NCBI GenBank assembly: GCA_964517075.1
Contig: CAZFAT010000062.1
Coordinates: 1 to 48,643 of the forward strand
Source: an uncultured Solibacteraceae bacterium
GTDB lineage: Bacteria; Acidobacteriota; Vicinamibacteria; Vicinamibacterales; SCN-69-37
Reading direction: 5' to 3'
DNA: 48,643 nt
Below are positions 11,455-44,388 of the stretch, in pieces. The notes under the pieces were generated by a model. That model searched no databases. It had not been told where the DNA came from and saw nothing but the letters and a program-made list of their open reading frames with translations. How positions within the stretch are numbered: the first letter of the stretch is position 1; every line of letters starts with the position of its first letter. Position numbers and translations under genes: made by a program.

Positions 11455-12608
11455 CCTCCGTCTCCTTTCGTCGTCCGCGCCGGGTACGACCCGAAGATCT
11501 TCAGTGACAACGTCAGGCCGCTGATCTCGTCGAGCGCCCGCTGAACGTTGGGGTCGGTGACGTTGCCCTCGAAATCCACGTAGAACAGGTACTCGAACGG
11601 CCGGCCGGGGCGTGGTCGCGATTCCAGCTTCGTCAGGTTGAGGCCGTGCCCGGCGAGCACGTTCAGGCACGCCAGCAGCGCGCCGCGCTCGTGCGGCGTC
11701 ACGAACATCACCGACGTCTTGCAGGGAACGCGCGCGTCCCAGGGCTCGACCTCGCGCGCAATCACCAGGAACCGGGTGTAGTTCTCGCGGTGGTTCGCGA
11801 TGTCGCGCCGCAGCACGTGCAGGCCGTGCAGCGCGGCGGCCTCGGCGCTCGCAATCGACGCGTGCGTCGGGTTGTTCTCCGCCTTGACCCGCTCGACGCT
11901 CATCGCCGTGTCGGTGAAGGACTCGATCGTGCAATGGGGCAGCGAGGCCAGAAACGCGGTGCACTGCGAGAGCGCCTGCGGGTGCGAGTAGATCTTGCGC
12001 AGATCCTCGAGCGGTACGTCCGCCACGCCGACGAGGCACATCTCGATGCGCAGGACCTCCTCACCGACAATCGCCAGATCGGTGTGCGACAGCGCGTCGT
12101 AGGCGTCGTGCACCGAACCCGACGTCGTGTTCTCGATCGGCAGCATCGCGTAGTCGGCCGCGCCGGCGCGAACCTCCTCGAGAATCCCCCGGAACGTCGG
12201 CAGGCCCCGGTAGGTGACCGGCCCCTGCCGCGGCGCGAAGAACCGCCGCCCGGCGATATGGCTGAACGCGCCCTCCGATCCCTGGAAGACCACCGTGATG
12301 GGGCGATGACCGTCGCCGCCGCGCACGTTCATGCCGAGGTGGGCCTCCTGGGTCCGGACGGAGAAATCGACAATCTCCCGGAAGATGCGGACGACGAAGA
12401 GCTCGTCGAGTCCCAGGGCACGGGCCCGCTCAGCCAGCCGCGCCACCTGGCGCGACTCGCGCAGCACGTCGCGCAGCGGCACGTTCGTCCGCGATTTGAC
12501 GGCCGCCACCCGCTCGACCGCCTTCGATCGGCGCGCGAGCAGGTCCACGAGCTCGCCATCGATCTGGTCGAGTTCCTGTCGCAGGGTTTCGAGCCGGTCG
12601 CCGTCCAT
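11451..12608 (-). CDS. pheA: bifunctional chorismate mutase / prephenate dehydratase (P-protein)
   Basis: N-terminal CM_2 helix (LRQELDQIDGELVDLLARR), PDT domain (VVFQGSEGAFSH, LPIENTTSGSV) and ACT domain with ESRP (LTKLESRPRPG). GGAGAGGA SD upstream of the ATG at 12608. Its stop shares CTAG with the convergent gene. Confidence 0.9.
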
Positions 12609-12774
12609 GCGTATCCTCTCCGGCCGGCGGGACCACCGCGATCCTGCCGCCGACCCCCGCCACCCGGGCGGGAGGCATCAACATAGCGCGCCCCGGCGGG
12701 TTCGGCCAGCGTGGCGCCGCTCAGCCAATCCATTGACGATAAACATTAGTGATTCAGATTTAAACATTATTCGA

Positions 12775-12804
12775 TTGTCAAATAGCAGGCCCGACCGATA
12801 TAAG
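12775..12804 (+). promoter_or_regulatory. candidate sigma70-type promoter for ilvD (TTGTCA-18 nt-TATAAG)
   Basis: TTGTCA at 12775-12780 and TATAAG at 12799-12804, inside the only AT-rich patch of the pheA/ilvD divergent intergenic region. Promoter consensus for this lineage is unknown, so confidence is low. Confidence 0.3.
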
Positions 12805-14538: not shown

Positions 14539-14666
14539 CATTGACGATTGGTTGATTGGGAGATTGAGGATTGGATTGACGATTGACTCATTGCCGATCG
14601 ATGCCGGTTTCAATCGTCAATCGCACAAATCCAATCCTCAATCACCGAATCAGCAAATCGTCAATG
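14539..14666. repeat. heptamer-periodic hairpin element B (GATTGNN / CAATCNN type), 128 nt
   Basis: The left arm 14539-14587 pairs with the right arm 14616-14666 (14539 with 14666 inward, about 40 Watson-Crick pairs, few mismatches, one U:G at 14552/14653). ATTG recurs every 7-8 nt. It lies 7 nt after the ilvD stop and 34 nt before the ilvB ATG. Confidence 0.85.
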
Positions 14667-18106: not shown

Positions 18107-18168
18107 GAGTTCAGTTCGGGGGTCTCGACAGCTACCGGAGACCGAAGACCGGCGACCGAAAACCGCCT
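18107..18168. repeat. heptamer-periodic element C (short hairpin plus GACCGAA array)
   Basis: GGTCTC (18121-18126) pairs with GAGACC (18138-18143). An exact 7-nt array follows: GACCGAA GACCGGC GACCGAA AACCGCC (18141-18168), then a pyrimidine tract. It starts 9 nt after the ilvC stop. Confidence 0.6.
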
Positions 18169-18245
18169 CCTTCCCTTTCTCTCCTGAAACGGGACATGAT
18201 CGGATGTTCGCTCGCGTCCCCCGCGAGCCACAGGAGACGTCTCTC

Positions 18246-19421
18246 GTGTTCAAAGTGCTCACACTCAACAACATCGCGAAGGTCGGGCTGTCCCGCCTTC
18301 CCTCCGACGCCTATCAGATTGGCAACGACATCAAGGACCCTGACGCCGTGCTCGTGCGCTCGGCGAGCATGCATGCGAGCCCGATTCCGCCGAGCCTGAA
18401 GGCTGTGGGGCGGGCCGGCGCCGGCGTGAACAACATTCCGGTGGCCCGGCTCAGCGAGAAGGGGATTCCCGTCTTCAACGCCCCGGGCGCCAACTCGAAC
18501 GCCGTCAAGGAGCTGGTGGTCGCCGGCCTCGTGCTGGCCTGCCGCCAGATCTGCGAGGCCTGGGACTTCGCCCGGACGCTCGAGGGCTCGGACGACGAGC
18601 TGGCGAAGGCGGTGGAGGCCGGCAAGAAGAACTTCGCGGGCTTCGAGCTGCCCGGCCGGACGCTGGGCGTCATCGGCCTGGGCGCCATTGGCCGGCTCGT
18701 CGCAAATGCCGGCGTGGGCCTCAGCATGCAGGTCATCGGGTTCGACCCCGGCCTGACGGTCGAAGGCGCCTGGCACCTCTCGTCCTCGGTCAAGAAGGCC
18801 CGATCGATTGAAGAAGTGCTGCGCGAGGCGGACTTCCTGACGGTGCACGTCCCGCTGAACGACGCGACCCGCCATCTCGTCAACGCCGACCGGATCAAGA
18901 CGATGAAGAAGGGCGTGGTCCTGCTGAACTTCGCGCGTGAGGGCATCATGGACGACCAGGCCATCGTGGACGCCATCGACGCCGGGCGCGTGCACGCCTA
19001 CATCAGCGATTTTCCGACGAACCTGACGAAGAACCACCGTCGGTGCGTGACGCTGCCGCACCTGGGCGCGTCGACCGCCGAGGCCGAAGACAACTGCGCC
19101 ATCATGGTGGCCGATCAGGTGCGGGACTTCCTGGAGAACGGCAACGTCCGCAACGCGGTCAACTTCCCGGAAGTCGTCGTGCCGCGCCGGACGGCCCACC
19201 GGCTGATCTGCGCGAACGCCAACGTGCCGAACATGCTCGGCCAGATCTCCGAGGCCTTCGGCCAGGCCGGCCTGAACATCCACGACATGGTCAACTCGTC
19301 GAAGGGCGACCTCGCCTACACGGTCGTCGACCTGGACGTGCCGGTTCCTCCGACGGTCTTCAAGCAAGTGTCCTCGATCAAAGGCGTGCTGATGGCGCGG
19401 TTGATGGATCAACCGAAGTAG
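18246..19421 (+). CDS. serA: D-3-phosphoglycerate dehydrogenase (with C-terminal ACT domain)
   Basis: 2-Hacid_dh fold (GRTLGVIGLGAIGRLVA, LTVHVPL, LLNFAREG, PHLGAST) plus an ACT-like tail. I prefer the GTG at 18246 (VFKVLTLNN) because AGGAG lies 9 nt upstream. The track start is the ATG at 18204. Confidence 0.85.
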   Translation: MFKVLTLNNIAKVGLSRLPSDAYQIGNDIKDPDAVLVRSASMHASPIPPSLKAVGRAGAGVNNIPVARLSEKGIPVFNAPGANSNAVKELVVAGLVLACRQICEAWDFARTLEGSDDELAKAVEAGKKNFAGFELPGRTLGVIGLGAIGRLVANAGVGLSMQVIGFDPGLTVEGAWHLSSSVKKARSIEEVLREADFLTVHVPLNDATRHLVNADRIKTMKKGVVLLNFAREGIMDDQAIVDAIDAGRVHAYISDFPTNLTKNHRRCVTLPHLGASTAEAEDNCAIMVADQVRDFLENGNVRNAVNFPEVVVPRRTAHRLICANANVPNMLGQISEAFGQAGLNIHDMVNSSKGDLAYTVVDLDVPVPPTVFKQVSSIKGVLMARLMDQPK

Positions 19422-19429
19422 CCATCTGC

Positions 19430-19645
19430 CTATCGGCTATTGGCTATTGGCTATCGCGATTGAGTTATTGGGCTATTGAACGGTTATTGGGCTATTGATT
19501 GGGTTATTGGAGGATTGGGTTATTGGACAATTTGGCTATTGATGGGCGAGTCGCTGATTCGCGACTGCGCGCTTCAGCGACTACCAATAACCCGATCAAT
19601 AGCCCAATAACTCAATCGCGATAGCCAATAACCAATAGCCGATAG
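19430..19645. repeat. heptamer-periodic hairpin element D (GGCTATT / AATAGCC type), 216 nt with a 50-bp outer stem
   Basis: 19430-19479 is the reverse complement of 19596-19645 with a single mismatch (C19444/A19631). TTATTGG-type units recur every 7 nt. A nested GC-rich hairpin spans 19549-19582. It fills the whole gap between the convergent stops. Confidence 0.9.
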
Positions 19646-20101
19646 CTAGATGCGACCGATAGCCGCCATCAGTTCCTCGACATCCGGCTGTTCGGGGATG
19701 TCATACAGCCGGATCCATTTGATGGTCCCTTCCTTGTCTATGACAAAGATGGCTCTTTCCGCGATGCCGTCGTCGCGCATCACTCCGTAGCTCGCGGCGG
19801 CCTGGCCGCGGGGGTGGAAGTCGCTCAGCAGATCGAACGAGATGCCGCCGAGGGCGTCGGCCCAGGCGCGCTTCGCGGGTGAGGCGTCGGTGCTGATCGC
19901 CAGCACGTGCGTGTCCAGCGCCGCGAACCGGGGCTGCTCGCGCTCGTACGTCTGCATCTGCACCGCACAGACCGGCGTGAACGCCAGCACGTGAAACGCC
20001 AGCACTACCGTCTTCTTCCCACGGAAGTCCGTGAGGCGGACCGTGTGTCCCTGGTGGCTGAGCAGCGCAAAGTCAGGAGCGGCCGTTCCGACCGGCAGCA
20101 T
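19646..20101 (-). CDS. peroxiredoxin (AhpC/TSA family)
   Basis: 151 aa from the internal ATG at 20101 ([18 protein letters not shown]...[18 protein letters not shown]). The peroxidatic Cys sits in FTPVC. The longer track ORF (to 20353) runs into the aquaporin gene and is rejected. Confidence 0.85.
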
Positions 20102-26533: not shown

Positions 26534-26539
26534 TTCCGC

Positions 26540-26610
26540 CAATCGTCAATCGACCAATCATCAATCGTCAATTCAAATCATCAATGAATCGATCGCCAAT
26601 CATCAATTCC
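26540..26610 (+). repeat. one-armed heptamer array E (CAATCNN units), homologous to the right arm of element B
   Basis: CAAT recurs at 26540, 26547, 26555, 26562, 26569, 26582, 26597 and 26604. It shares the exact 13-mer CAATCGTCAATCG with 14611-14623 and a near-identical tail (AAATCATCAATGAA vs AAATCGTCAATGAA). No complementary arm is present. It lies between the clpA stop and the grpE start. Confidence 0.75.
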
Positions 26611-27224: not shown

Positions 27225-27989
27225 TCAGCCCTGCGGATCCACCGACCCGGATCGCGTCGCGATCCGTGCGCGCGCCGGATGACCCGCTGGCGGCGTCCAC
27301 TTCGCGTAACGCAGGATGGTCCAGATCGCCTGGAAACCGTCCTTCACGCCAATCTTCTTTCCCTCGGCGTACGTCCGCCCGTTATAGGAAATGGGGACCT
27401 CGTAGATCCGCAGTCCGAGGCGGCTGACCTTGCACGTCAGCTCCGGCTCAATGCCGAACCGCTGGGACCGCAGGTCGATGATCGTCGCCACGTCACGCGT
27501 CATGGCCTTGTAGCAGCTCTCCATGTCGGTGAGGTTGAGGTCCGTGAAGGCGTTCGAGAACAGCGTGAGCAGCCGATTGCCGACCGAGTGCCAGAAGTAG
27601 AGGACGCGATGCCCGCGCGGGGTGCCGAGGAATCGCGATCCGAACACGACGTCGGCCCGCCCGTCGAGAATCGGCTGCAGCATGACGGGATACTCGGCCG
27701 GGTCGTACTCGAGATCGGCGTCCTGAATCAGCACGAGATCGCCGATGGCTTCCTTGATCCCGCGCGCCACGGCCGCCCCTTTGCCGAAGTTTCGCGGCTG
27801 CAGGAACACGCGAATGTCCGGACGCGCCTCGAACTCGCGAAGGATGTCCCGCGTGCCGTCCGTGGAGCCGTCGTCGACGATGACCAGTTCCTTCTCGATG
27901 CCCGCGAGCGGGACGGCGAACACCCGCGCGACAATCTCGCGAATGGTATGCCGCTCGTTGTAGGCGGGCATGATGACGGACAGCTTCAC
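27225..27989 (-). CDS. family 2 glycosyltransferase (polyprenyl-phosphate sugar synthase-like, DPM1/GtrB/ArnC type)
   Basis: [28 protein letters not shown] and [10 protein letters not shown] motifs. GTG start. Last gene of the minus-strand glycosylation array. Confidence 0.85.
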
Positions 27990-28019
27990 GGCCGGTTATG
28001 GTACCCCAGGACGCTTGCG

Positions 28020-30308
28020 TTATCGCCCAATCACCCTCAGCCCCGCGACCGACCAGAGTTGTCCACCCTGCGACGTGGTCAACGTCAGTGTCACGCGATC
28101 GCCGACCACGCCGTCAGGCAGCGGGACGAGGACCGGCGCGCGCCGCAGATCCAGGAGGATGCCGCGCGCCGCGAAGCCGGCGGTGTCGCCCTCCCAGACG
28201 ATCGTCTTGCCACCCCCGGCGTCACCGACCGCCACCTGCAGGCGCTTCGGGTAATCGTAGGTGTACGGACCGAGGTCCAGCTCGAGGCGCGTCAGTGGTC
28301 CGGAGGCTTGAAGCACGAGATCGAGGCGCGCCCCCGCGGCCGGCGTGCCGGAGTGCCACCGCGTGTCGGGCCGGCCGTCGGTGATCAGCGGCAGGAGGTC
28401 GCGGCTGGCGTTCGCGCTGATCGCGGCGATCGGCACCGGGGTCCCCTCCAGCGGCGGCAGCGGCCGCTCCGGCAGCCTGTACATCGGACCGTCGTCGGTC
28501 GCGCCCATCCGCTCGGCGCCGGGCTGTTCGGCGATGAACGCTTCCGTGGTCCCGGAGGGATCCCGTCCGCGGTGCACGAACACGAGCACACCGCCGTACT
28601 GGCGCAGCACGTCGAGGGCCACGCGATCGTGGCTGGCGAGGGCGTTCCGCAGAGGAAAGTAGTGCGGCGGCGCGTAGCCGCTGAAGCCGTTCACGAGCGG
28701 CACGCGGTGGCCCACGGCACGCAGCATCGCCGCGGTTTCAGCAAAGACGTCCGCCATCGGCAGTTCGAGCACGGCGGTGGATCCGGCACGCGCGCTGGCG
28801 GACAGATCGAGCGGCGCCGGCACCGACGCGGTCGGCATCCGCGGCACCCAGCCTTCGAGGGTAATCACCACCGCGAGCACGGCGACAATCGGCGCGAGTC
28901 CGGCCCGGCCGTTCGAGAGCCGGGCGAAGGCAAGGGCGGCGAACTGCGACAGGCAGAGCACGAACAGCATGGCGAACCGGGCGGGGACGCGAAGCGCGCG
29001 GCCGCCGGGCAGGTCCATGACCCAGAGGTACGGCGCGCGCGGCCAGAAGACTTCGCCGAAGGCCCGCGCCACGGGACCCAGCGCGAGGATGAGCATGACG
29101 ATGGCGGCCGCCCCGTAGAAGAGGAAAACGGATCGTCGGCGCCAGCCCTGACGGGTGCGCGGATCGGCCAACCACGCCACCGCCAAGAGGCACACGACGA
29201 TGAACAACGGTTTTCCCGCCCGTGTCATCGACACGGGGACGCCGAAGGGCGACGCGTGCCAGGGGCCGAGCCACATGGTCAGGAGCACGGCCTCGGCGAG
29301 GTACGCGCCGACAAGGGCCACCCCGATGCGCCAGCGTGACCAGCGTGTGCGGCCAGCGGCCCGCCAGGCCATGAATCCGCCGGCCAGCGATAACGCCATG
29401 ATCACCAGGCCCGGATACAGCTCACCCTCTTGCCTGGGCGTCAGGGTCCAGAACGCGGGCAGCCAGGCGGTGCGCGACACCCACAGGCCGCTCAGGTCCG
29501 CGGCAAACTGGCTGATTTCACCGGGATCGCGCGCGAGACCGAGCGCGCCCTGACGCTGGATGTAGCCGATCAGGACCGGCGCCATGGCGAGCGACGCCAC
29601 GGCCAGGACGCCGCTGATGGCGATCCAGAGCCGCCACGACCGGGCGAACCACAGCATCCACAACCCGACGAGCACGCCGAAGTACATCAGGAAATAGCCG
29701 CTCGTCAGGCCGTTGAGCAGCCAGCACACGCCCGCCAGCGCGAGGAATCGCGCGCGCGGCGACTCCAGGTAGCGGTGCAGGCCGAGCAGGCAGAGCGGCA
29801 TCCAGCAGGACCACAGCACCTGCAGGTGGGGCAACTGCGCCGCGCGATACGGGTTGAAGCCGAACGCGAGCCCGGCCAGCAGCGCCGCGTCATGGCGTCC
29901 GGTGAGCCGGTGCGCCAACGCATGCGCGGCCAGAGCGGCGGCCGGAAACGACGCGAGAAATGCCACGTTGTAAGCCACGACGTGGCTCGCGCCCGCCCAC
30001 TGGAGCGGCGTGGTGAGCGGCGTCAACGCCAGGAGCGTTTCCGACAGAGCAAACGCCCCGGGCGTGGGAAAGAAAATCGGCGCGTTCCACCAGGCCGGCG
30101 TGAGCGGAACCGCGTGGGCGTTCCACCAGAAGATCCACGCGTTCAGAGCGGGATCGCCCGCGTCGAACGGGAGCCGCGTGCCCAGGGCGCCGAGGAGCGG
30201 CCAGCCGTAGACCAGCGCGAGAACGACGTACAGGGCCGAGACCCGCGTCCAGGGCGATCGAATCCACTGACGAGAGCGAGCCCGCGTCTGGTCCGCTCCG
30301 GCGTCCAT
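28020..30308 (-). CDS. polytopic membrane protein (GT-C-like) with C-terminal discoidin/F5-8 type C-like domain
   Basis: The ATG at 30308 (ATGA overlap with the upstream gene) gives MDAGADQTRARSRQW..., with an LPFDAGDPALNAWIFWW first-loop acidic motif and many TM segments. The C-terminal 150 aa (ISANASRDLLPLITDGRPDTRWHSG...) look like a galactose-binding/discoidin fold. The upstream 375 aa of the 1137-aa track ORF overlap the next gene out of frame and are rejected. Confidence 0.7.
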   Translation of the reverse strand: MDAGADQTRARSRQWIRSPWTRVSALYVVLALVYGWPLLGALGTRLPFDAGDPALNAWIFWWNAHAVPLTPAWWNAPIFFPTPGAFALSETLLALTPLTTPLQWAGASHVVAYNVAFLASFPAAALAAHALAHRLTGRHDAALLAGLAFGFNPYRAAQLPHLQVLWSCWMPLCLLGLHRYLESPRARFLALAGVCWLLNGLTSGYFLMYFGVLVGLWMLWFARSWRLWIAISGVLAVASLAMAPVLIGYIQRQGALGLARDPGEISQFAADLSGLWVSRTAWLPAFWTLTPRQEGELYPGLVIMALSLAGGFMAWRAAGRTRWSRWRIGVALVGAYLAEAVLLTMWLGPWHASPFGVPVSMTRAGKPLFIVVCLLAVAWLADPRTRQGWRRRSVFLFYGAAAIVMLILALGPVARAFGEVFWPRAPYLWVMDLPGGRALRVPARFAMLFVLCLSQFAALAFARLSNGRAGLAPIVAVLAVVITLEGWVPRMPTASVPAPLDLSASARAGSTAVLELPMADVFAETAAMLRAVGHRVPLVNGFSGYAPPHYFPLRNALASHDRVALDVLRQYGGVLVFVHRGRDPSGTTEAFIAEQPGAERMGATDDGPMYRLPERPLPPLEGTPVPIAAISANASRDLLPLITDGRPDTRWHSGTPAAGARLDLVLQASGPLTRLELDLGPYTYDYPKRLQVAVGDAGGGKTIVWEGDTAGFAARGILLDLRRAPVLVPLPDGVVGDRVTLTLTTSQGGQLWSVAGLRVIGR

Positions 30309-32230
30309 CAGTTCGTCCCCGGCTGGAAGACGAGCGTCGGCGCTGGCTCGGGCGGCACGGCGCGCAGACCATCGTCGACGCCCGTGACGATGACCGCCGG
30401 GTTCGGAGGTGGATCGCGCAGGTCGTACAGGAACAGATGGCCGGGCTCGTCGTAGACCGCGAGCGGCGGTCCTTCCAGCTTCGAGACGGTTCCAGAACCG
30501 TCGAACCGGCGCACGACCTCGGGAAGCTCCCACGGCTCGACGAGGAGGTAAGGGTGCGCGCCGTGGCTGTCGAGCCACGCCACGGCCCGGTCGAGCCACC
30601 CGGGGTCCAGTTGGTCGTACCGCAGGGTCATCCGGCTGCCGTAGTAGCGGACCGTCCCGCTGTGCTGCATGGAGATGATGACGCTGTTGGGCGGCGTCAG
30701 GCGCTCGACCATCCGGGCGGCCGTGATGTAGCGCCGTTCCCCGCGCCATTGATCGAACACCGGCACATCCGCGACGACACCGGCCTGAAAGAGTAGCTGC
30801 AGCACGACACCGGCCACCACGGCGGCGCGCGCGAAGCGGCCGCCCGGCTGCCAGATGCCCATCGCGACGATGCCGGCACCGACCATCATGAACGGCCAGG
30901 CCGTCAGGAGGAATCGGAGATACCACCAGGCGTCGAAGACGAGATACGCGACGTATTGCGCCCAGGTCGAGAAGACGAACAGGGCCGCGATGACCACGCG
31001 GCGCCGTTCGCGAAGGTCCGGCCAGAGCCAGGAGAACGGCAGGGCCAGCGCGATGAGGCCGGCCACCGCCACCGGCGAGTGCGTCTGCACCAGCCAGATG
31101 AGATAGCGCCGGACGTTGGGACGGATGTGTTCCCACGCGAAGAGGTCGCTCAACCGACCGTAGCCTGACAGGAAGGGCGATCCGTACAAGTCGTTGTTGA
31201 TCGCGCCGACCGCGATGACACCTGGCAGCACGCCGAGGAAGAACAGCACGGCGAGCCGGAACGCACGGCCGCGCGACTCGCGCCTGAAGAGATCGGGCAG
31301 GTAGTAACACCCCGCAAAAGCGGCGAGTGGCACGAGGTTGGGCCGGATCATCACCGCGACGCCGCTCAGCACACCGGCGGCGAGGGCGCTTCTCGCGCCC
31401 GGGCCCGTCAGAAGGTAGAAAGCCGCCGCCCACATGGCCGCCACGGGCACGTCGGTCATGGGCGGCATCAGCATGAACAGCACGGCCGGACTCGTGGCGA
31501 CGAGCGCCGCGCCGATCAGTCCAGCGCCGGGTGAGCCCAGCCGGCAGCCGATGCCGTAGGTGGCCAGCACGAGCAGGGCGCCGAGGAGCGGCACGACGTA
31601 GAACAGCGCGTCGTGGCCGCCGATGGCCTTGAAGACCGCGAAGATCAGCGGCAATCCCGGTGAGTAGATCGGCACGATCGACGGGATGTCGTCACGAAAC
31701 GTCGCCTTGTAGCCGAGCGGCATGAACGTGTCGCGGCCGCGCGGCCACGGCACCTCGCCGGCAAACGGCTGCGCGATCGCCAGCCGGCCCTCGAGCCACA
31801 GGTCGGCCTGGCTCACGTAGCCGTAGGCGTCCGCGCCGCCCGCGCTCTTCGTCGCGAAAATGGCGCCCAGCAGGAAGACGCCGGCTGCCATGGCGATGGT
31901 GGCGGTCCGCGGCGACGGCAGCCATCGGGCCACGCCGCGGTCCCATGCGCGAAGGAGCCGTTCGAACGAGTGGAGGAAATTGCGCCAGGCCGGGAGAGGT
32001 CGCCCGCCGAGGGCGACAAACGCGATGGCGCCGGCCGCGACGACCCACAGGGCGCGCAGCGGCCGATGTGCGCGGATCTCGACGCCGGAGATTCGCACCT
32101 CGAAACCGCCGGTCACGTAGAGCAGCGGCACTGCGGCGAGGCCGATCAGGACCAGCGTGAACGCCGCGTGCCGCAGCACGCGGCGCGTGCGGCCTTCAGG
32201 CCGGCTGGCCGGCAGGTCCAAGGGCGTCAT
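30308..32230 (-). CDS. GT-C fold glycosyltransferase (ArnT/PMT-like), paralog 2
   Basis: The ATG at 32230 (ATGA overlap with the upstream paralog) gives MTPLDLPASRPEGRTRRVLRHAAFTLVLIG. It shares GADAYGYVSQADLWLEG, YSPGLPL, IRPN, LYGSPFLSGYGR, YLRFLLTAWPF and SGTVRYYGSRMTLRYD blocks with the adjacent gene. At least 10 TM segments. Confidence 0.75.
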   Translation of the reverse strand: MTPLDLPASRPEGRTRRVLRHAAFTLVLIGLAAVPLLYVTGGFEVRISGVEIRAHRPLRALWVVAAGAIAFVALGGRPLPAWRNFLHSFERLLRAWDRGVARWLPSPRTATIAMAAGVFLLGAIFATKSAGGADAYGYVSQADLWLEGRLAIAQPFAGEVPWPRGRDTFMPLGYKATFRDDIPSIVPIYSPGLPLIFAVFKAIGGHDALFYVVPLLGALLVLATYGIGCRLGSPGAGLIGAALVATSPAVLFMLMPPMTDVPVAAMWAAAFYLLTGPGARSALAAGVLSGVAVMIRPNLVPLAAFAGCYYLPDLFRRESRGRAFRLAVLFFLGVLPGVIAVGAINNDLYGSPFLSGYGRLSDLFAWEHIRPNVRRYLIWLVQTHSPVAVAGLIALALPFSWLWPDLRERRRVVIAALFVFSTWAQYVAYLVFDAWWYLRFLLTAWPFMMVGAGIVAMGIWQPGGRFARAAVVAGVVLQLLFQAGVVADVPVFDQWRGERRYITAARMVERLTPPNSVIISMQHSGTVRYYGSRMTLRYDQLDPGWLDRAVAWLDSHGAHPYLLVEPWELPEVVRRFDGSGTVSKLEGPPLAVYDEPGHLFLYDLRDPPPNPAVIVTGVDDGLRAVPPEPAPTLVFQPGTN

Positions 32231-41245: not shown

Positions 41246-41316
41246 GTTCTCGGTTCTCGCTTCTCGGTTCCGGGAGCATGTCAGTACCGAAAACCCGGAA
41301 CCGAAAACCGACAACG
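41246..41316. repeat. heptamer-periodic hairpin element F (GTTCTCG / ACCGAAA type)
   Basis: Left arm GTTCTCG GTTCTCG CTTCTCG GTTCCGG (41246-41273). Right arm TACCGAA AACCCGG AACCGAA AACCGAC (41285-41312). The pairing register is 41253 with 41315 inward to 41274 with 41294. It lies between convergent stops (41229 and 41324). Confidence 0.75.
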
Positions 41317-42475: not shown

Positions 42476-42496
42476 GGGGTCTCAGGATCTTAGATT

Positions 42497-42577
42497 AGTT
42501 TGAGTTCTGAGTCGTGAGTTCAGAGTTCCCGACTGCGACCAGAGCCTCAAGACTCATGACTCAAAACTCAGAACTAC
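42497..42577. repeat. heptamer-periodic hairpin element G (GAGTTCN / NNGACTC type)
   Basis: Left arm GAGTTCT GAGTCGT GAGTTCA GAGTTCC (42502-42529). Right arm AAGACTC ATGACTC AAAACTC AGAACTA (42549-42576). The GTTCTGAG/CTCAGAAC core pairs 42504-42511 with 42567-42574. It sits in the divergent 5' region between the DAC-like and MutS-like genes. Confidence 0.7.
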
Positions 42578-44388
42578 CGCGAAGCCCCTCAGGCCACAAT
42601 AACGCCGTGACCGATGCCGGCTCCATCGACGCGGAGTACCGCCGGCGGCTCGAGGCCCGTCGCGCGGCCCTGGCCACCGAGGAGCGCACGCACGCGCGCT
42701 TCAGTTACGTGCGCCTGCTCATTGCCGCGAGTGTGCCCGTATTACTCGCCCTGCTGGGCTGGACTCCGTGGCTGTTCGTCCCTCCCCTGGCATTTGCCGT
42801 CGTGGCGCTGCTGCACGGCCGGCTGCTGAACGCGCGGGATCGAACGGCATCCGCCGTCGCCCATTACGAACGCGGACTCGCCAGGCTGGCGAATGACTGG
42901 ATCGGCCGCGGCCGGCCCGGGGAGGCGTTCCTTCCGGCCGACCATCTCTACGCCGCCGACCTGGACCTGTTCGGACGAGGCAGCCTCTTCGAATTGCTGG
43001 CCACGATGCGTACGCAGATGGGCGAGGAGATCCTGGCGCGCTGGCTGCTCGAGCCGGCGCCGCCTGATGTCATCCGCCAGCGGCAGGCGGCCGTCGCCGA
43101 GTTGGTGCCGCGAATCGACCTGCGCGAGACCGTGGCGGTGATGGGTGATCCCCTCCGCGTGAGCGTGGACGCCAGCCTGCTTCGACGGTGGGCCACTTCA
43201 CGCATCGTCCTCAGCAGCACCGTCGCGCGCCCGATGCTCGCGCTGCTGAGCGCGGCCACGATCGGCGCGCTCGTGACGTGGGTATCGACGGGAGCGTGGG
43301 GCGGCGTGGCGGCCGCACTCATCCTCGTCCAGTCGCTCGTCGCCCAGGCGCTCAAGCCCCACGTCCTCGCTGTGATTGACGCCGTCGACGCGCCCGCGCA
43401 CGACCTGGATCTCGTGGCCGAACTGCTCGCCCTCGTTGAGCGCGAGTCATTCGCGAGTCCGTGCCTGACCGACCTGCAAACCACCATAGCCACAACCGGC
43501 CGGACCGCGTCGGCAGAGATCAACCGCCTCTCGAAGCTCGTCGCCATGCTGGCGTCACGGCGCAACGTGATGTTCGCGGTACCGGCGGCCCTGATGCTCT
43601 GGGCGACGCAGTGGGCGTTCGCGATCGAAGCCTGGCGCCGCCGCTCCGGGCCGCACGTGCCCCGGTGGCTCGACGCCATCGGCGAGTTCGAGGCGCTCGT
43701 CGCGCTCGCAACCTTCGCCGCCGAGCACCCGACCTACGTGTTTCCGGCGCTGACCGACGGGCCGGCCATGGTCGCCGCCACCGCGCTGGCGCATCCCGTG
43801 CTGCCGTCCACCGCCGTGACGAACGACGTGGCTCTGCACAGCAGCGGGATGGCGCTGCTCGTCGTCAGCGGATCCAACATGTCAGGCAAGAGCACGCTCC
43901 TCCGCACACTCGGCGTGAGCGTCGTTCTCGCACAAATGGGAGCGCCGGTGCGCGCGACGGCGTTCCGGCTGACGCCGCTGGCGGTCGGCGCGGCCATCCG
44001 CGTGCAGGATTCACTGACCGATGGCCGGTCACGGTTCTTCGCCGAGATCACCCGCCTGAAACAGATCGTCGATCTCGCCACCCGCTGCCAGGGCGGCGTG
44101 CTGTTCCTGCTCGACGAGATTCTGGCCGGCACGAACTCCCACGATCGCCGGCTGGGCGCCGAGGCGGTGCTCGCGGGCCTGATTGACCTTGGCGCCATCG
44201 GCCTCGCCACCACGCACGACCTGGCGCTCGGCGAGATTGCCACACGCCTGGCGGGCCGTGCGGAGAACGTTCACTTCGTCGATCACCTGGCGGATGGCGT
44301 GCTCACGTTCGACTATCGGCTCCGCGCCGGTATCGTGCAAAGCAGCAACGCGCTGGCACTGATGCGGTCGATCGGATTGAAGGTGTGA
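42556..44388 (+). CDS. membrane-anchored MutS-related ATPase (MutS domain V only)
   Basis: N-terminal hydrophobic helices (VRLLIAASVPVLLALLGWTPWLFVPPLAFAVVALL and LALLSAATIGALVTWVSTGAWGGVAAALILV). C-terminal MutS ABC-ATPase domain (SGSNMSGKSTLLRTLG Walker A, LFLLDEILAGTN Walker B, ATTHD). No mismatch-binding domain. The start is uncertain (GTG 42514, ATG 42556 or GTG 42607) because element G covers the 5' end. Confidence 0.75.
   Translation: MTQNSELPRSPSGHNNAVTDAGSIDAEYRRRLEARRAALATEERTHARFSYVRLLIAASVPVLLALLGWTPWLFVPPLAFAVVALLHGRLLNARDRTASAVAHYERGLARLANDWIGRGRPGEAFLPADHLYAADLDLFGRGSLFELLATMRTQMGEEILARWLLEPAPPDVIRQRQAAVAELVPRIDLRETVAVMGDPLRVSVDASLLRRWATSRIVLSSTVARPMLALLSAATIGALVTWVSTGAWGGVAAALILVQSLVAQALKPHVLAVIDAVDAPAHDLDLVAELLALVERESFASPCLTDLQTTIATTGRTASAEINRLSKLVAMLASRRNVMFAVPAALMLWATQWAFAIEAWRRRSGPHVPRWLDAIGEFEALVALATFAAEHPTYVFPALTDGPAMVAATALAHPVLPSTAVTNDVALHSSGMALLVVSGSNMSGKSTLLRTLGVSVVLAQMGAPVRATAFRLTPLAVGAAIRVQDSLTDGRSRFFAEITRLKQIVDLATRCQGGVLFLLDEILAGTNSHDRRLGAEAVLAGLIDLGAIGLATTHDLALGEIATRLAGRAENVHFVDHLADGVLTFDYRLRAGIVQSSNALALMRSIGLKV

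Follow-up and report, generated by a model that had tools for sequence, protein, structure and literature searches.

Here we describe an intergenic element, termed D, that lies between a serA-like gene and a convergent peroxiredoxin gene in a stretch of DNA of 48,643 nt (the window, by which we mean the whole of that stretch). The gene order at the locus is ilvD, ilvB, ilvN, ilvC and serA, followed by the convergent peroxiredoxin gene and then a UPF0182 gene, with an aquaporin-like gene upstream of the peroxiredoxin gene. The contig belongs to the Acidobacteriota and probably to the Vicinamibacterales. Searches of genome collections with serA gave MAGs of Acidobacteriota as the best matches (Vicinamibacterales, 84%; others, 78–83%). 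GC content per kilobase is 67–72% over the window, 61% in the kilobase that contains D and 47% in D itself. The genes and the parts of the element are as follows.

18204–19421, plus strand: serA-like D-2-hydroxyacid dehydrogenase gene (Pfam 2-Hacid_dh_C and 2-Hacid_dh; open reading frame), with its TAG stop at 19419–19421
19423–19483, no strand: 5′ (left) arm of D, G/T-rich, made of YTATTGG and GATTGRG units, with the near-perfect core at 19430–19479
19484–19548, no strand: left-only units of D, about seven, with no right-hand partner
19549–19582, no strand: GC-rich nested hairpin at the tip of D (9 bp plus 4 bp), missing from the orthologous element in contig L082
19584–19652, no strand: 3′ (right) arm of D, C/A-rich, made of CCAATAR units
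19646–20101, minus strand: peroxiredoxin (AhpC/TSA) gene (Pfam; translation), with its TAG stop at 19646–19648 and a probable ATG start at 20101

Elsewhere in the window, the segment upstream of ilvD (12720–12800) is AT-rich (about 45% GC) and holds ATTGACGAT / GATTGTCAA together with the direct repeat TAAACATTA. The segment might serve the ilv cluster as promoter or operator, and its words are similar to those of element B, a second hairpin described below. ARAGORN called an 86-nt tRNA-Ala(GGC) at 28374–28459 within very long open reading frames (27279–29339 on the plus strand and 28020–31433 on the minus strand), a call that may be false. The AT skew of the 29–34 kb stretch is unusually high (0.2–0.38).

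Architecture of element D

Direct checking of the arms showed that 19430–19479 is the reverse complement of 19596–19645 with C19444/A19631 as the sole mismatch, and the 50-bp arms of the preliminary description are thus exact. Its account of the boundaries held and could be refined. Both TAG stops are where it had placed them, and the inverted repeat, which it had ended at the base before the peroxiredoxin stop, runs further, from 19423 to 19652, and includes that stop. The arms returned by the repeat finder (19423–19483 and 19592–19652; 61 nt, 93%) are accordingly longer than the core. The base of the stem (CATCT/AGATG) begins 2 nt past the serA stop and takes in the peroxiredoxin stop codon, so that the right arm overlaps this codon and the final two sense codons of the gene. 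Inwards of the core, CGGTTATTGG (19481–19490) pairs with 19584–19594 after a 1-nt bulge, which is the resumption of pairing after a 1-nt offset that had been noted before. At the tip, AGTCGCTGA (19549–19557) is the exact reverse complement of 19574–19582 and forms the nested hairpin, again as first described. The spacer between the arms is 108 nt, and a shifted register, in which 19483–19510 pairs with 19584–19611, is also possible. The earlier statement that no open reading frame lies inside D holds but for two mechanical TTG-start frames of 41 and 44 aa.

The arms are themselves tandem arrays. Tandem Repeats Finder reports a period of 7 for both arms (6.9 and 7.0 copies), together with super-repeats of period 8, 16, 19 and 21; arrays of period 16–19 are found in the 19484–19548 tract. 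The tract at 19491–19545, initially read as about eight heptamers present on the left side only, is indeed one-sided, and unit decomposition gives a close count of about seven. The word YTATTGGNYTATTG occurs four times in the window, every time within D, where 0.01 occurrences would be expected. When the arms are split into units, both yield the same heterogeneous series, mirrored: CTATCGG, CTATTGG, YTATTGG, CTATCGC, GATTGAG, TTATTGGG, CTATTGA and so on. The 50-bp arms are near-perfect although the units inside each arm differ among themselves. Independent slippage in two arrays would not give a mirrored order, and the arms are therefore a true inverted duplication and not two independent arrays. 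The mirrored heterogeneous order implies that they came from inverted duplication of an existing array, or that they have been held in register. The GC skew of the 5′ arm is +0.28.

Folding and motif searches

For the segment 19415–19660, the folding energies are −140.2 kcal/mol (plus strand) and −135.2 kcal/mol (minus strand), compared with −69 and −59 kcal/mol for its shuffles (z = −16.1 and −18.0, respectively; 0 of 200 shuffles were as good). No T-run follows either arm on either side of D, and a promoter and terminator scan of 19200–19900 placed no site in D and no site of the intrinsic-terminator type within 19422–19652. A canonical intrinsic terminator was rejected for want of a U-tract. 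A G-quadruplex was likewise rejected, as no G3+N1-12 x4 motif is present in D on either strand. An Rfam scan of the whole window returned no match at the gathering threshold.

We also looked for signs of mobility. The flanks of D, taken at three choices of boundary, share no direct repeat, in agreement with the preliminary description, which had seen no target-site duplication. BLAST of the D arms and of the GC-rich central hairpin against the contig and 1.8 Mb of fetched loci returned no copies besides orthologues. The ordinary MITE that had been raised as an alternative is thus contradicted over the contig and the 1.8 Mb of related loci, where D has neither an identical copy nor a target-site duplication.

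The serA–peroxiredoxin gap across related strains

Contigs spanning the serA–peroxiredoxin gap were retrieved both through serA and through peroxiredoxin homologues. The resulting series is listed here with the identity of the peroxiredoxin.

L168: peroxiredoxin 83%; gap of 29 nt; GTCGATGCGATAGCCAAATAGCCAGATGG, similar to the outer part of the right arm of D
L082: peroxiredoxin 91%, serA 98%; gap of 165 nt; hairpin of −105 kcal/mol including flanks
L162: peroxiredoxin 91%; gap of at least 165 nt (partial); hairpin whose right arm is degraded
L172: peroxiredoxin 88%; gap partial; right arm resembling that of the window
Window: peroxiredoxin 100%; gap of 224 nt; element D
L164, L167 and L163: peroxiredoxin 87%; gaps of 258, 286 and 288 nt, respectively; one-sided tandem array of 16-mers (L164 567–824, L167 622–907, L163 2168–2455)

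The length polymorphism among strains that the preliminary description had proposed looking for is thus present, with gaps of 29, 165, 224, 258, 286 and 288 nt. All versions of the gap have the cores CCATCTGG and GGCTATC(GCGATTG) in common. The arms of the window and of L082 differ at 3 and 5 of 50 positions, and one pair has changed on both sides (a compensatory change from A-T to G-C). Their interiors are unalignable: L082 lacks the GC-rich nested hairpin and carries its extra unpaired units on the right and not on the left. The peroxiredoxin protein is identical in L164, L167 and L163, which were obtained from three samples, and the copy number of the 16-nt unit GGGCTATCGACRATCG differs among them. 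Because unit number varies among samples with an identical peroxiredoxin, D evolves in place by slippage. The series shows that D is homologous across strains and that it changes by gain and loss of units (slipped-strand mispairing) and not by insertion. The suggestion that the left-hand array had expanded by slippage is therefore borne out, both by L082, with its conserved arms, different interior and extra units on the other side, and by the three samples that vary in unit number.

The same comparison bears on the single mismatch of the core. The preliminary description had pointed out, correctly, that C19444/A19631 would be G:U on a minus-strand transcript. The mismatch is also present in L082, in which the remaining mismatches give wobble equally on both strands, and so it provides no evidence for a minus-strand RNA. 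A minus-strand-specific RNA deduced from this one G:U pair was rejected, as this mismatch is inherited from an ancestor and the remaining ones favour neither strand. An assembly artefact was also rejected, since three independent assemblies (L082, L162 and L172) have an element of this kind at the corresponding position.

No heptamer hairpin follows serA in L003, L004, L037 or L168, and D is consequently not required. Hairpins of this kind, with other words, are nevertheless present in acidobacterial loci retrieved through serA. In L002, the serA stop gives way at once to a GGTTCTA / TAGAACC hairpin, beyond which lie a T-run and a peroxiredoxin gene that is co-directional with serA. L004 contains a 241-nt GGGGTTC / GAACCCC hairpin of −135 to −155 kcal/mol, and L037 contains two GAAGTNA / ACTTCTC hairpins, one of which is just upstream of serA. 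Periodic inverted repeats are absent from L083, L084 and L086, each of which is about 20 kb long.

Several other features of these contigs were recorded. The peroxiredoxin gene beside serA runs in the direction of serA in L002 (2163–2330) but is convergent with it in the window (19422–20101), with a heptamer hairpin in between both times; in L004, another gene lies between serA and the peroxiredoxin gene and there is no hairpin. In L170 (P0012 contigs), a transposase gene is found downstream of a homologous peroxiredoxin gene; this downstream context is a different one, and the contigs were uninformative. The only contig with the exact serA protein (L001; Logan, SRR10083321; 1.6 kb) stops 31 nt into the array (1592–1622). 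A 79-aa open reading frame called inside the 16-mer array of L167 is probably spurious. The end of a Vicinamibacterales MAG contig (L003 1–268) consists of a 71-nt tandem repeat (3.8 copies, 96% identity). At a more distant acidobacterial locus, L022, a pair of short, inverted 9-mer arrays, GGTACGACG / TCGTACCCG, occur about 90 nt apart (11886–11910 and 11997–12021), an architecture as in D but with a 9-nt unit.

Other repeat-built elements on the contig

Besides D, the 48.6-kb contig has at least six hairpins or arrays of degenerate 7–8-nt units, each in an intergenic gap of its own.

A, 2826–2895, no strand: GGTTCTC / CCGAAAA hairpin, flanked by two minus-strand genes
B, 14539–14666, no strand: GATTGRN hairpin in the ilvD / ilvB gap
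C, 18110–18165, no strand: ACCGAAG array with a weak partner in the ilvC / serA gap
E, 26539–26607, no strand: one-sided C/A-rich CAATCGT array in the clpB / grpE gap
F, 41246–41315, no strand: GTTCTCG / ACCGAAA hairpin between convergent genes
G, 42490–42578, no strand: GAGTTCT / AGAACTC hairpin between divergent genes (a DACNV-domain gene on the minus strand and a MutS-domain gene on the plus strand)

The preliminary description had also considered that D might be a one-off palindrome; this is contradicted by structures of similar pattern, built of other words, that are abundant in the window and in its relatives. The words on the contig form families, of GGTTCT type in A, C and F and of ATTGR type in B, D and E, with each element having its own word. 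The arrays form AT-rich islands of 44–50% GC in a genome of 69% GC. On a rough GC3-based gene map, elements A–G occupy 7 of about two dozen gaps of at least 50 nt; their density is about one per 7 kb, and they take up roughly one-quarter to one-third of the larger gaps between genes. When the whole window was scanned for folding, B, D, F and G came out within the six strongest GC-corrected outliers, whereas A and E rank lower and are outliers on the minus strand only. A simple lag-7 autocorrelation scan, being too stringent, failed to pick up most of the elements.

The sense strand of array E, right after the clpB stop, is C/A-rich and G-poor and is almost unstructured (−4.7 kcal/mol; antisense, −18.8 kcal/mol). 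Another one-sided array with a C/A-rich, G-poor sense strand lies right after a stop codon in L002 (7323–7384). In composition, both of these one-sided arrays resemble a Rho-loading (rut) site.

Periodic inverted repeats in the fetched loci

The window and 161 fetched loci (L001–L161; 1.8 Mb) were scanned for inverted repeats of at least 18 nt lying no more than 200 nt apart. A strong periodicity of 7–12 nt was seen in 32 of the 139 inverted-repeat elements. These periodic elements occur in acidobacterial loci and in many loci from gammaproteobacterial MAGs, and are built of words such as AGTGAGG, AGTTAGG, TAATTGG, ACGGAGGAC and AACAGGATT. Of the 85 tandem arrays with a period of 6–10, 35 are heptamers, more than for any other unit length.

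G outnumbers C in the 5′ arm of 29 of the 32 periodic elements (binomial p = 2.6e-6), some of which are mutually related, bringing the effective number nearer to 27; the corresponding split for non-periodic inverted repeats is 60 versus 40. This 5′-G polarity points to a constraint acting on single strands. The gap could be classified for 27 elements: it is tandem for 18, convergent for about 8 and divergent for 0–1, the background being 436 tandem, 54 convergent (9.5%) and 79 divergent (14%) gaps; these assignments use crude gene calls, with D, L082 and G reassigned by hand. Periodic inverted repeats are thus enriched in convergent gaps. For elements in tandem gaps, with D removed, folding favours the sense over the antisense strand in 15 cases and the antisense strand in 6, a weak bias, and one to which the non-periodic controls also lean.

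Comparison with known repeat systems

The closest parallels to D are pairs of inverted heptamer arrays of the Xanthomonas and Geobacter type, with which it shares tandem units of 7–9 nt, a 5′-G-rich stem-loop, a position near stop codons and a gap of variable length. In Xanthomonas campestris/axonopodis, Rehm et al. (2015; PMC4692102) found about 185 GGGAATC heptamer arrays per genome, of which 70–75 cases per genome are two convergently oriented arrays that could form stem-loops. The G-rich array is on the sense strand at most 50 bp from the stop, or antisense just upstream of the next open reading frame; arrays are under-represented between divergent open reading frames, and their length and sequence vary among close relatives at the same gap (PMC4692102). 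Like these arrays, D is an inverted pair of intergenic tandem heptamers in a GC-rich genome, near stop codons, with 5′-G-rich polarity and with length and sequence that vary at the same gap among relatives. It differs in its phylum, in its far longer and nearly perfect arms (50–61 bp), and in that the word here changes from locus to locus, whereas one word dominates in Xanthomonas. The Xanthomonas arrays were interpreted by the authors as formers of G-quadruplexes (PMC4692102), a reading that cannot apply to D, which lacks G-quadruplex potential.

In Geobacter metallireducens, Aklujkar et al. (2009; PMC2700814) described paired sites on opposite strands, each of 3–5 tandem 7–9-mers, with 8–24 pairs per class (classes 1–3: GTTGCTYN, TCTCCGTS[Y] and MTYCTGA). 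The pairs are a variable distance apart, are intergenic, including inside operons (for example, proB/proA), and are not found in the sister species; it was guessed that they bind IHF/HU-type proteins or a global regulator (PMC2700814). The likeness to D and its neighbours lies in the short tandem units on opposite strands, the few word families per genome and the intergenic location. The Geobacter arrays are shorter than D, and a comparison of strains is available only here.

A further likeness is to long simple sequence repeats (SSRs) and to the STRR heptamers of cyanobacteria, in which, as here, the heptamer is the commonest unit. These are described as direct arrays, and an inverted, hairpin-forming layout is outside that definition. 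The long SSRs of Mrazek et al. in 2007 (units of 5–11 nt) reportedly lie in noncoding DNA, in free-living bacteria whose genomes are large, and owe their variation in length to slippage. As summarized in PMC4679880 and PMC4692102, Mrazek (2007) found heptanucleotide SSRs to be the most abundant long SSRs of bacteria.

D also invites comparison with the common intergenic hairpins. REP/BIME and REPIN elements are intergenic hairpins, often at 3′ ends, that number in the hundreds per genome; REP stem-loops stabilize upstream mRNA, and REPs have a conserved motif of 20–35 nt that is spread by RAYT transposases. D, by contrast, has no second copy in the contig or the 1.8 Mb of fetched loci and is built of tandem units, and the other hairpins of the window use other words. 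With intrinsic terminators, D shares a hairpin directly downstream of a stop codon, here symmetric in a convergent gap; it differs from them in having no U-tract, in its 108-nt interior and in a stem that is far longer and more AT-rich than their 5–14 GC-rich pairs. Our search of the literature on heptamer repeats or hairpins in Acidobacteria or Vicinamibacter found nothing specific. D is therefore an acidobacterial example, without a G-quadruplex, of a class that has already been described, and not a categorically new element.

A possible shared 3′ stem-loop and its alternatives

We propose, with a probability of roughly 0.55, that D, a 'microsatellite palindrome', is not mobile, that it both arose and evolves in place, and that its most likely role is that of a 3′ stem-loop shared by the two mRNAs. 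D consists of two inverted arrays of degenerate 7–8-nt units, which take up the whole gap between serA and the convergent peroxiredoxin gene. Template switching within a strand is an established source of mutations at quasipalindromes, and such quasipalindrome correction, selection for pairing, or both may have kept the arms complementary. An RNA entering D from either side would form a stem of about 70 bp, with a G/U-rich 5′ arm that starts right after the stop codon. This stem could act as a common 3′ stem-loop that blocks convergent read-through and 3′-to-5′ exonucleases, in the manner of REP/BIME-type stem-loops. It would not be a canonical intrinsic terminator but would modulate expression, and would be dispensable and not essential. 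We infer a role at transcript 3′ ends from the position of D, from the excess of such elements in convergent gaps, from the G-first polarity and from the slight preference for folding on the sense strand. Against such a role stand the lack of a U-tract, the lack of D in close relatives, the divergent setting of G and the one-sided E, which has no hairpin.

The main rival, which we consider possible though on balance unlikely, invokes the same evolutionary mechanism and differs only on whether the hairpin acts. It holds that D is a functionless by-product: heptanucleotide microsatellites would expand readily in this lineage, give rise to inverted copies through template switching and be tolerated in spacers that are free of promoters. 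Such neutrality agrees with the absence of D from the same gap in close relatives, with the extremely fast turnover of its interior, and with a divergence of the arms that is close to the flanking synonymous-site rate and includes only one compensatory pair. Tolerance alone also predicts both the enrichment in convergent gaps and the depletion in divergent ones, and Mrazek (2007), as relayed in PMC4679880 and PMC4692102, explained the abundance of 5–11-nt SSRs by a general tendency to expand. The 5′-G-rich polarity (29 of 32) is harder to accommodate, for it needs a cause that distinguishes the arms at the level of the single strand. Neutral expansion is also at odds with the small number of words per genome, which are common to genomes at non-orthologous sites (for example, the GGTTCT-type words of A, C and F in the window, and of L002 and L004), and with the maintenance of near-perfect 50-bp arms despite the heterogeneity of the units within them.

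The arrays might instead be bound by a DNA-bending or nucleoid-associated protein or by a global regulator, which we judge improbable. Binding of IHF/HU has been proposed for the paired tandem 7–9-mers of Geobacter metallireducens, for which PMC2700814 gives no experimental support, and the AT-rich islands that the arrays form in a GC-rich genome would suit such a protein. The words nevertheless differ on one contig (CTATTGG, GATTGAC, GGTTCTC and GAGTTCT), and a single sequence-specific protein cannot bind them all; unit number and spacing, moreover, vary freely among strains. A role at the level of DNA, with the hairpin or cruciform as a hotspot of replication or recombination that leads, for instance, to local inversion or rearrangement, is highly improbable. 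The oppositely oriented peroxiredoxin gene beside the heptamer hairpin of L002 and the transposase gene after the homologous peroxiredoxin gene of L170 could be taken in its favour, but these rearrangements are between distant relatives and have no connection with the ends of the element. A long spacer between the arms of a palindrome makes extrusion of a cruciform from duplex DNA unfavourable, and the 108-nt spacer of D counts against it accordingly. Insertion of a MITE or REPIN-like miniature mobile element between the two stop codons, to which the long terminal inverted repeat, the intergenic position and the lack of coding capacity might point, is largely refuted and deserves next to no credence, because there is no target-site duplication, the arms have no second copy in the window or in the 1.8 Mb of related loci, they are tandem arrays and not a unique terminal inverted repeat, and homologues of graded length with a common core are present in the same gap of several strains, as expected of evolution in place; the MITE/REPIN reading was rejected on these grounds.

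The proposal of a shared 3′ stem-loop can be extended from D to repeat hairpins in general, a step that we regard as speculative and doubtful. Repeat-built hairpins whose 5′ arm is rich in G and whose 3′ arm is rich in C would then constitute one class found across phyla, with a polarity selected at the RNA level; its members would be the elements seen here in Acidobacteriota and many gammaproteobacterial MAGs and those reported from Xanthomonas and Geobacter. Their structure might be 'Rho-proof' at the 3′ end: the G-rich arm, which emerges first, could not load Rho, and the C-rich arm would be sequestered at once.

In practical terms, such repeats break short-read assemblies, as in the Logan contig, and yield spurious gene calls, as in L167. 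The series of related strains allows an element of this kind to be seen growing and shrinking at one locus. As D has no G-tracts, the feature common to the class is the hairpin and not the G-quadruplex. The high density of hairpins (about one per 7 kb) makes Vicinamibacterales-like genomes a good system for asking what such repeats do. Should the class prove to be as outlined above, it would be a widespread and unrecognized means of shaping transcript ends and operon polarity, of which D would be an unusually large and clean example.
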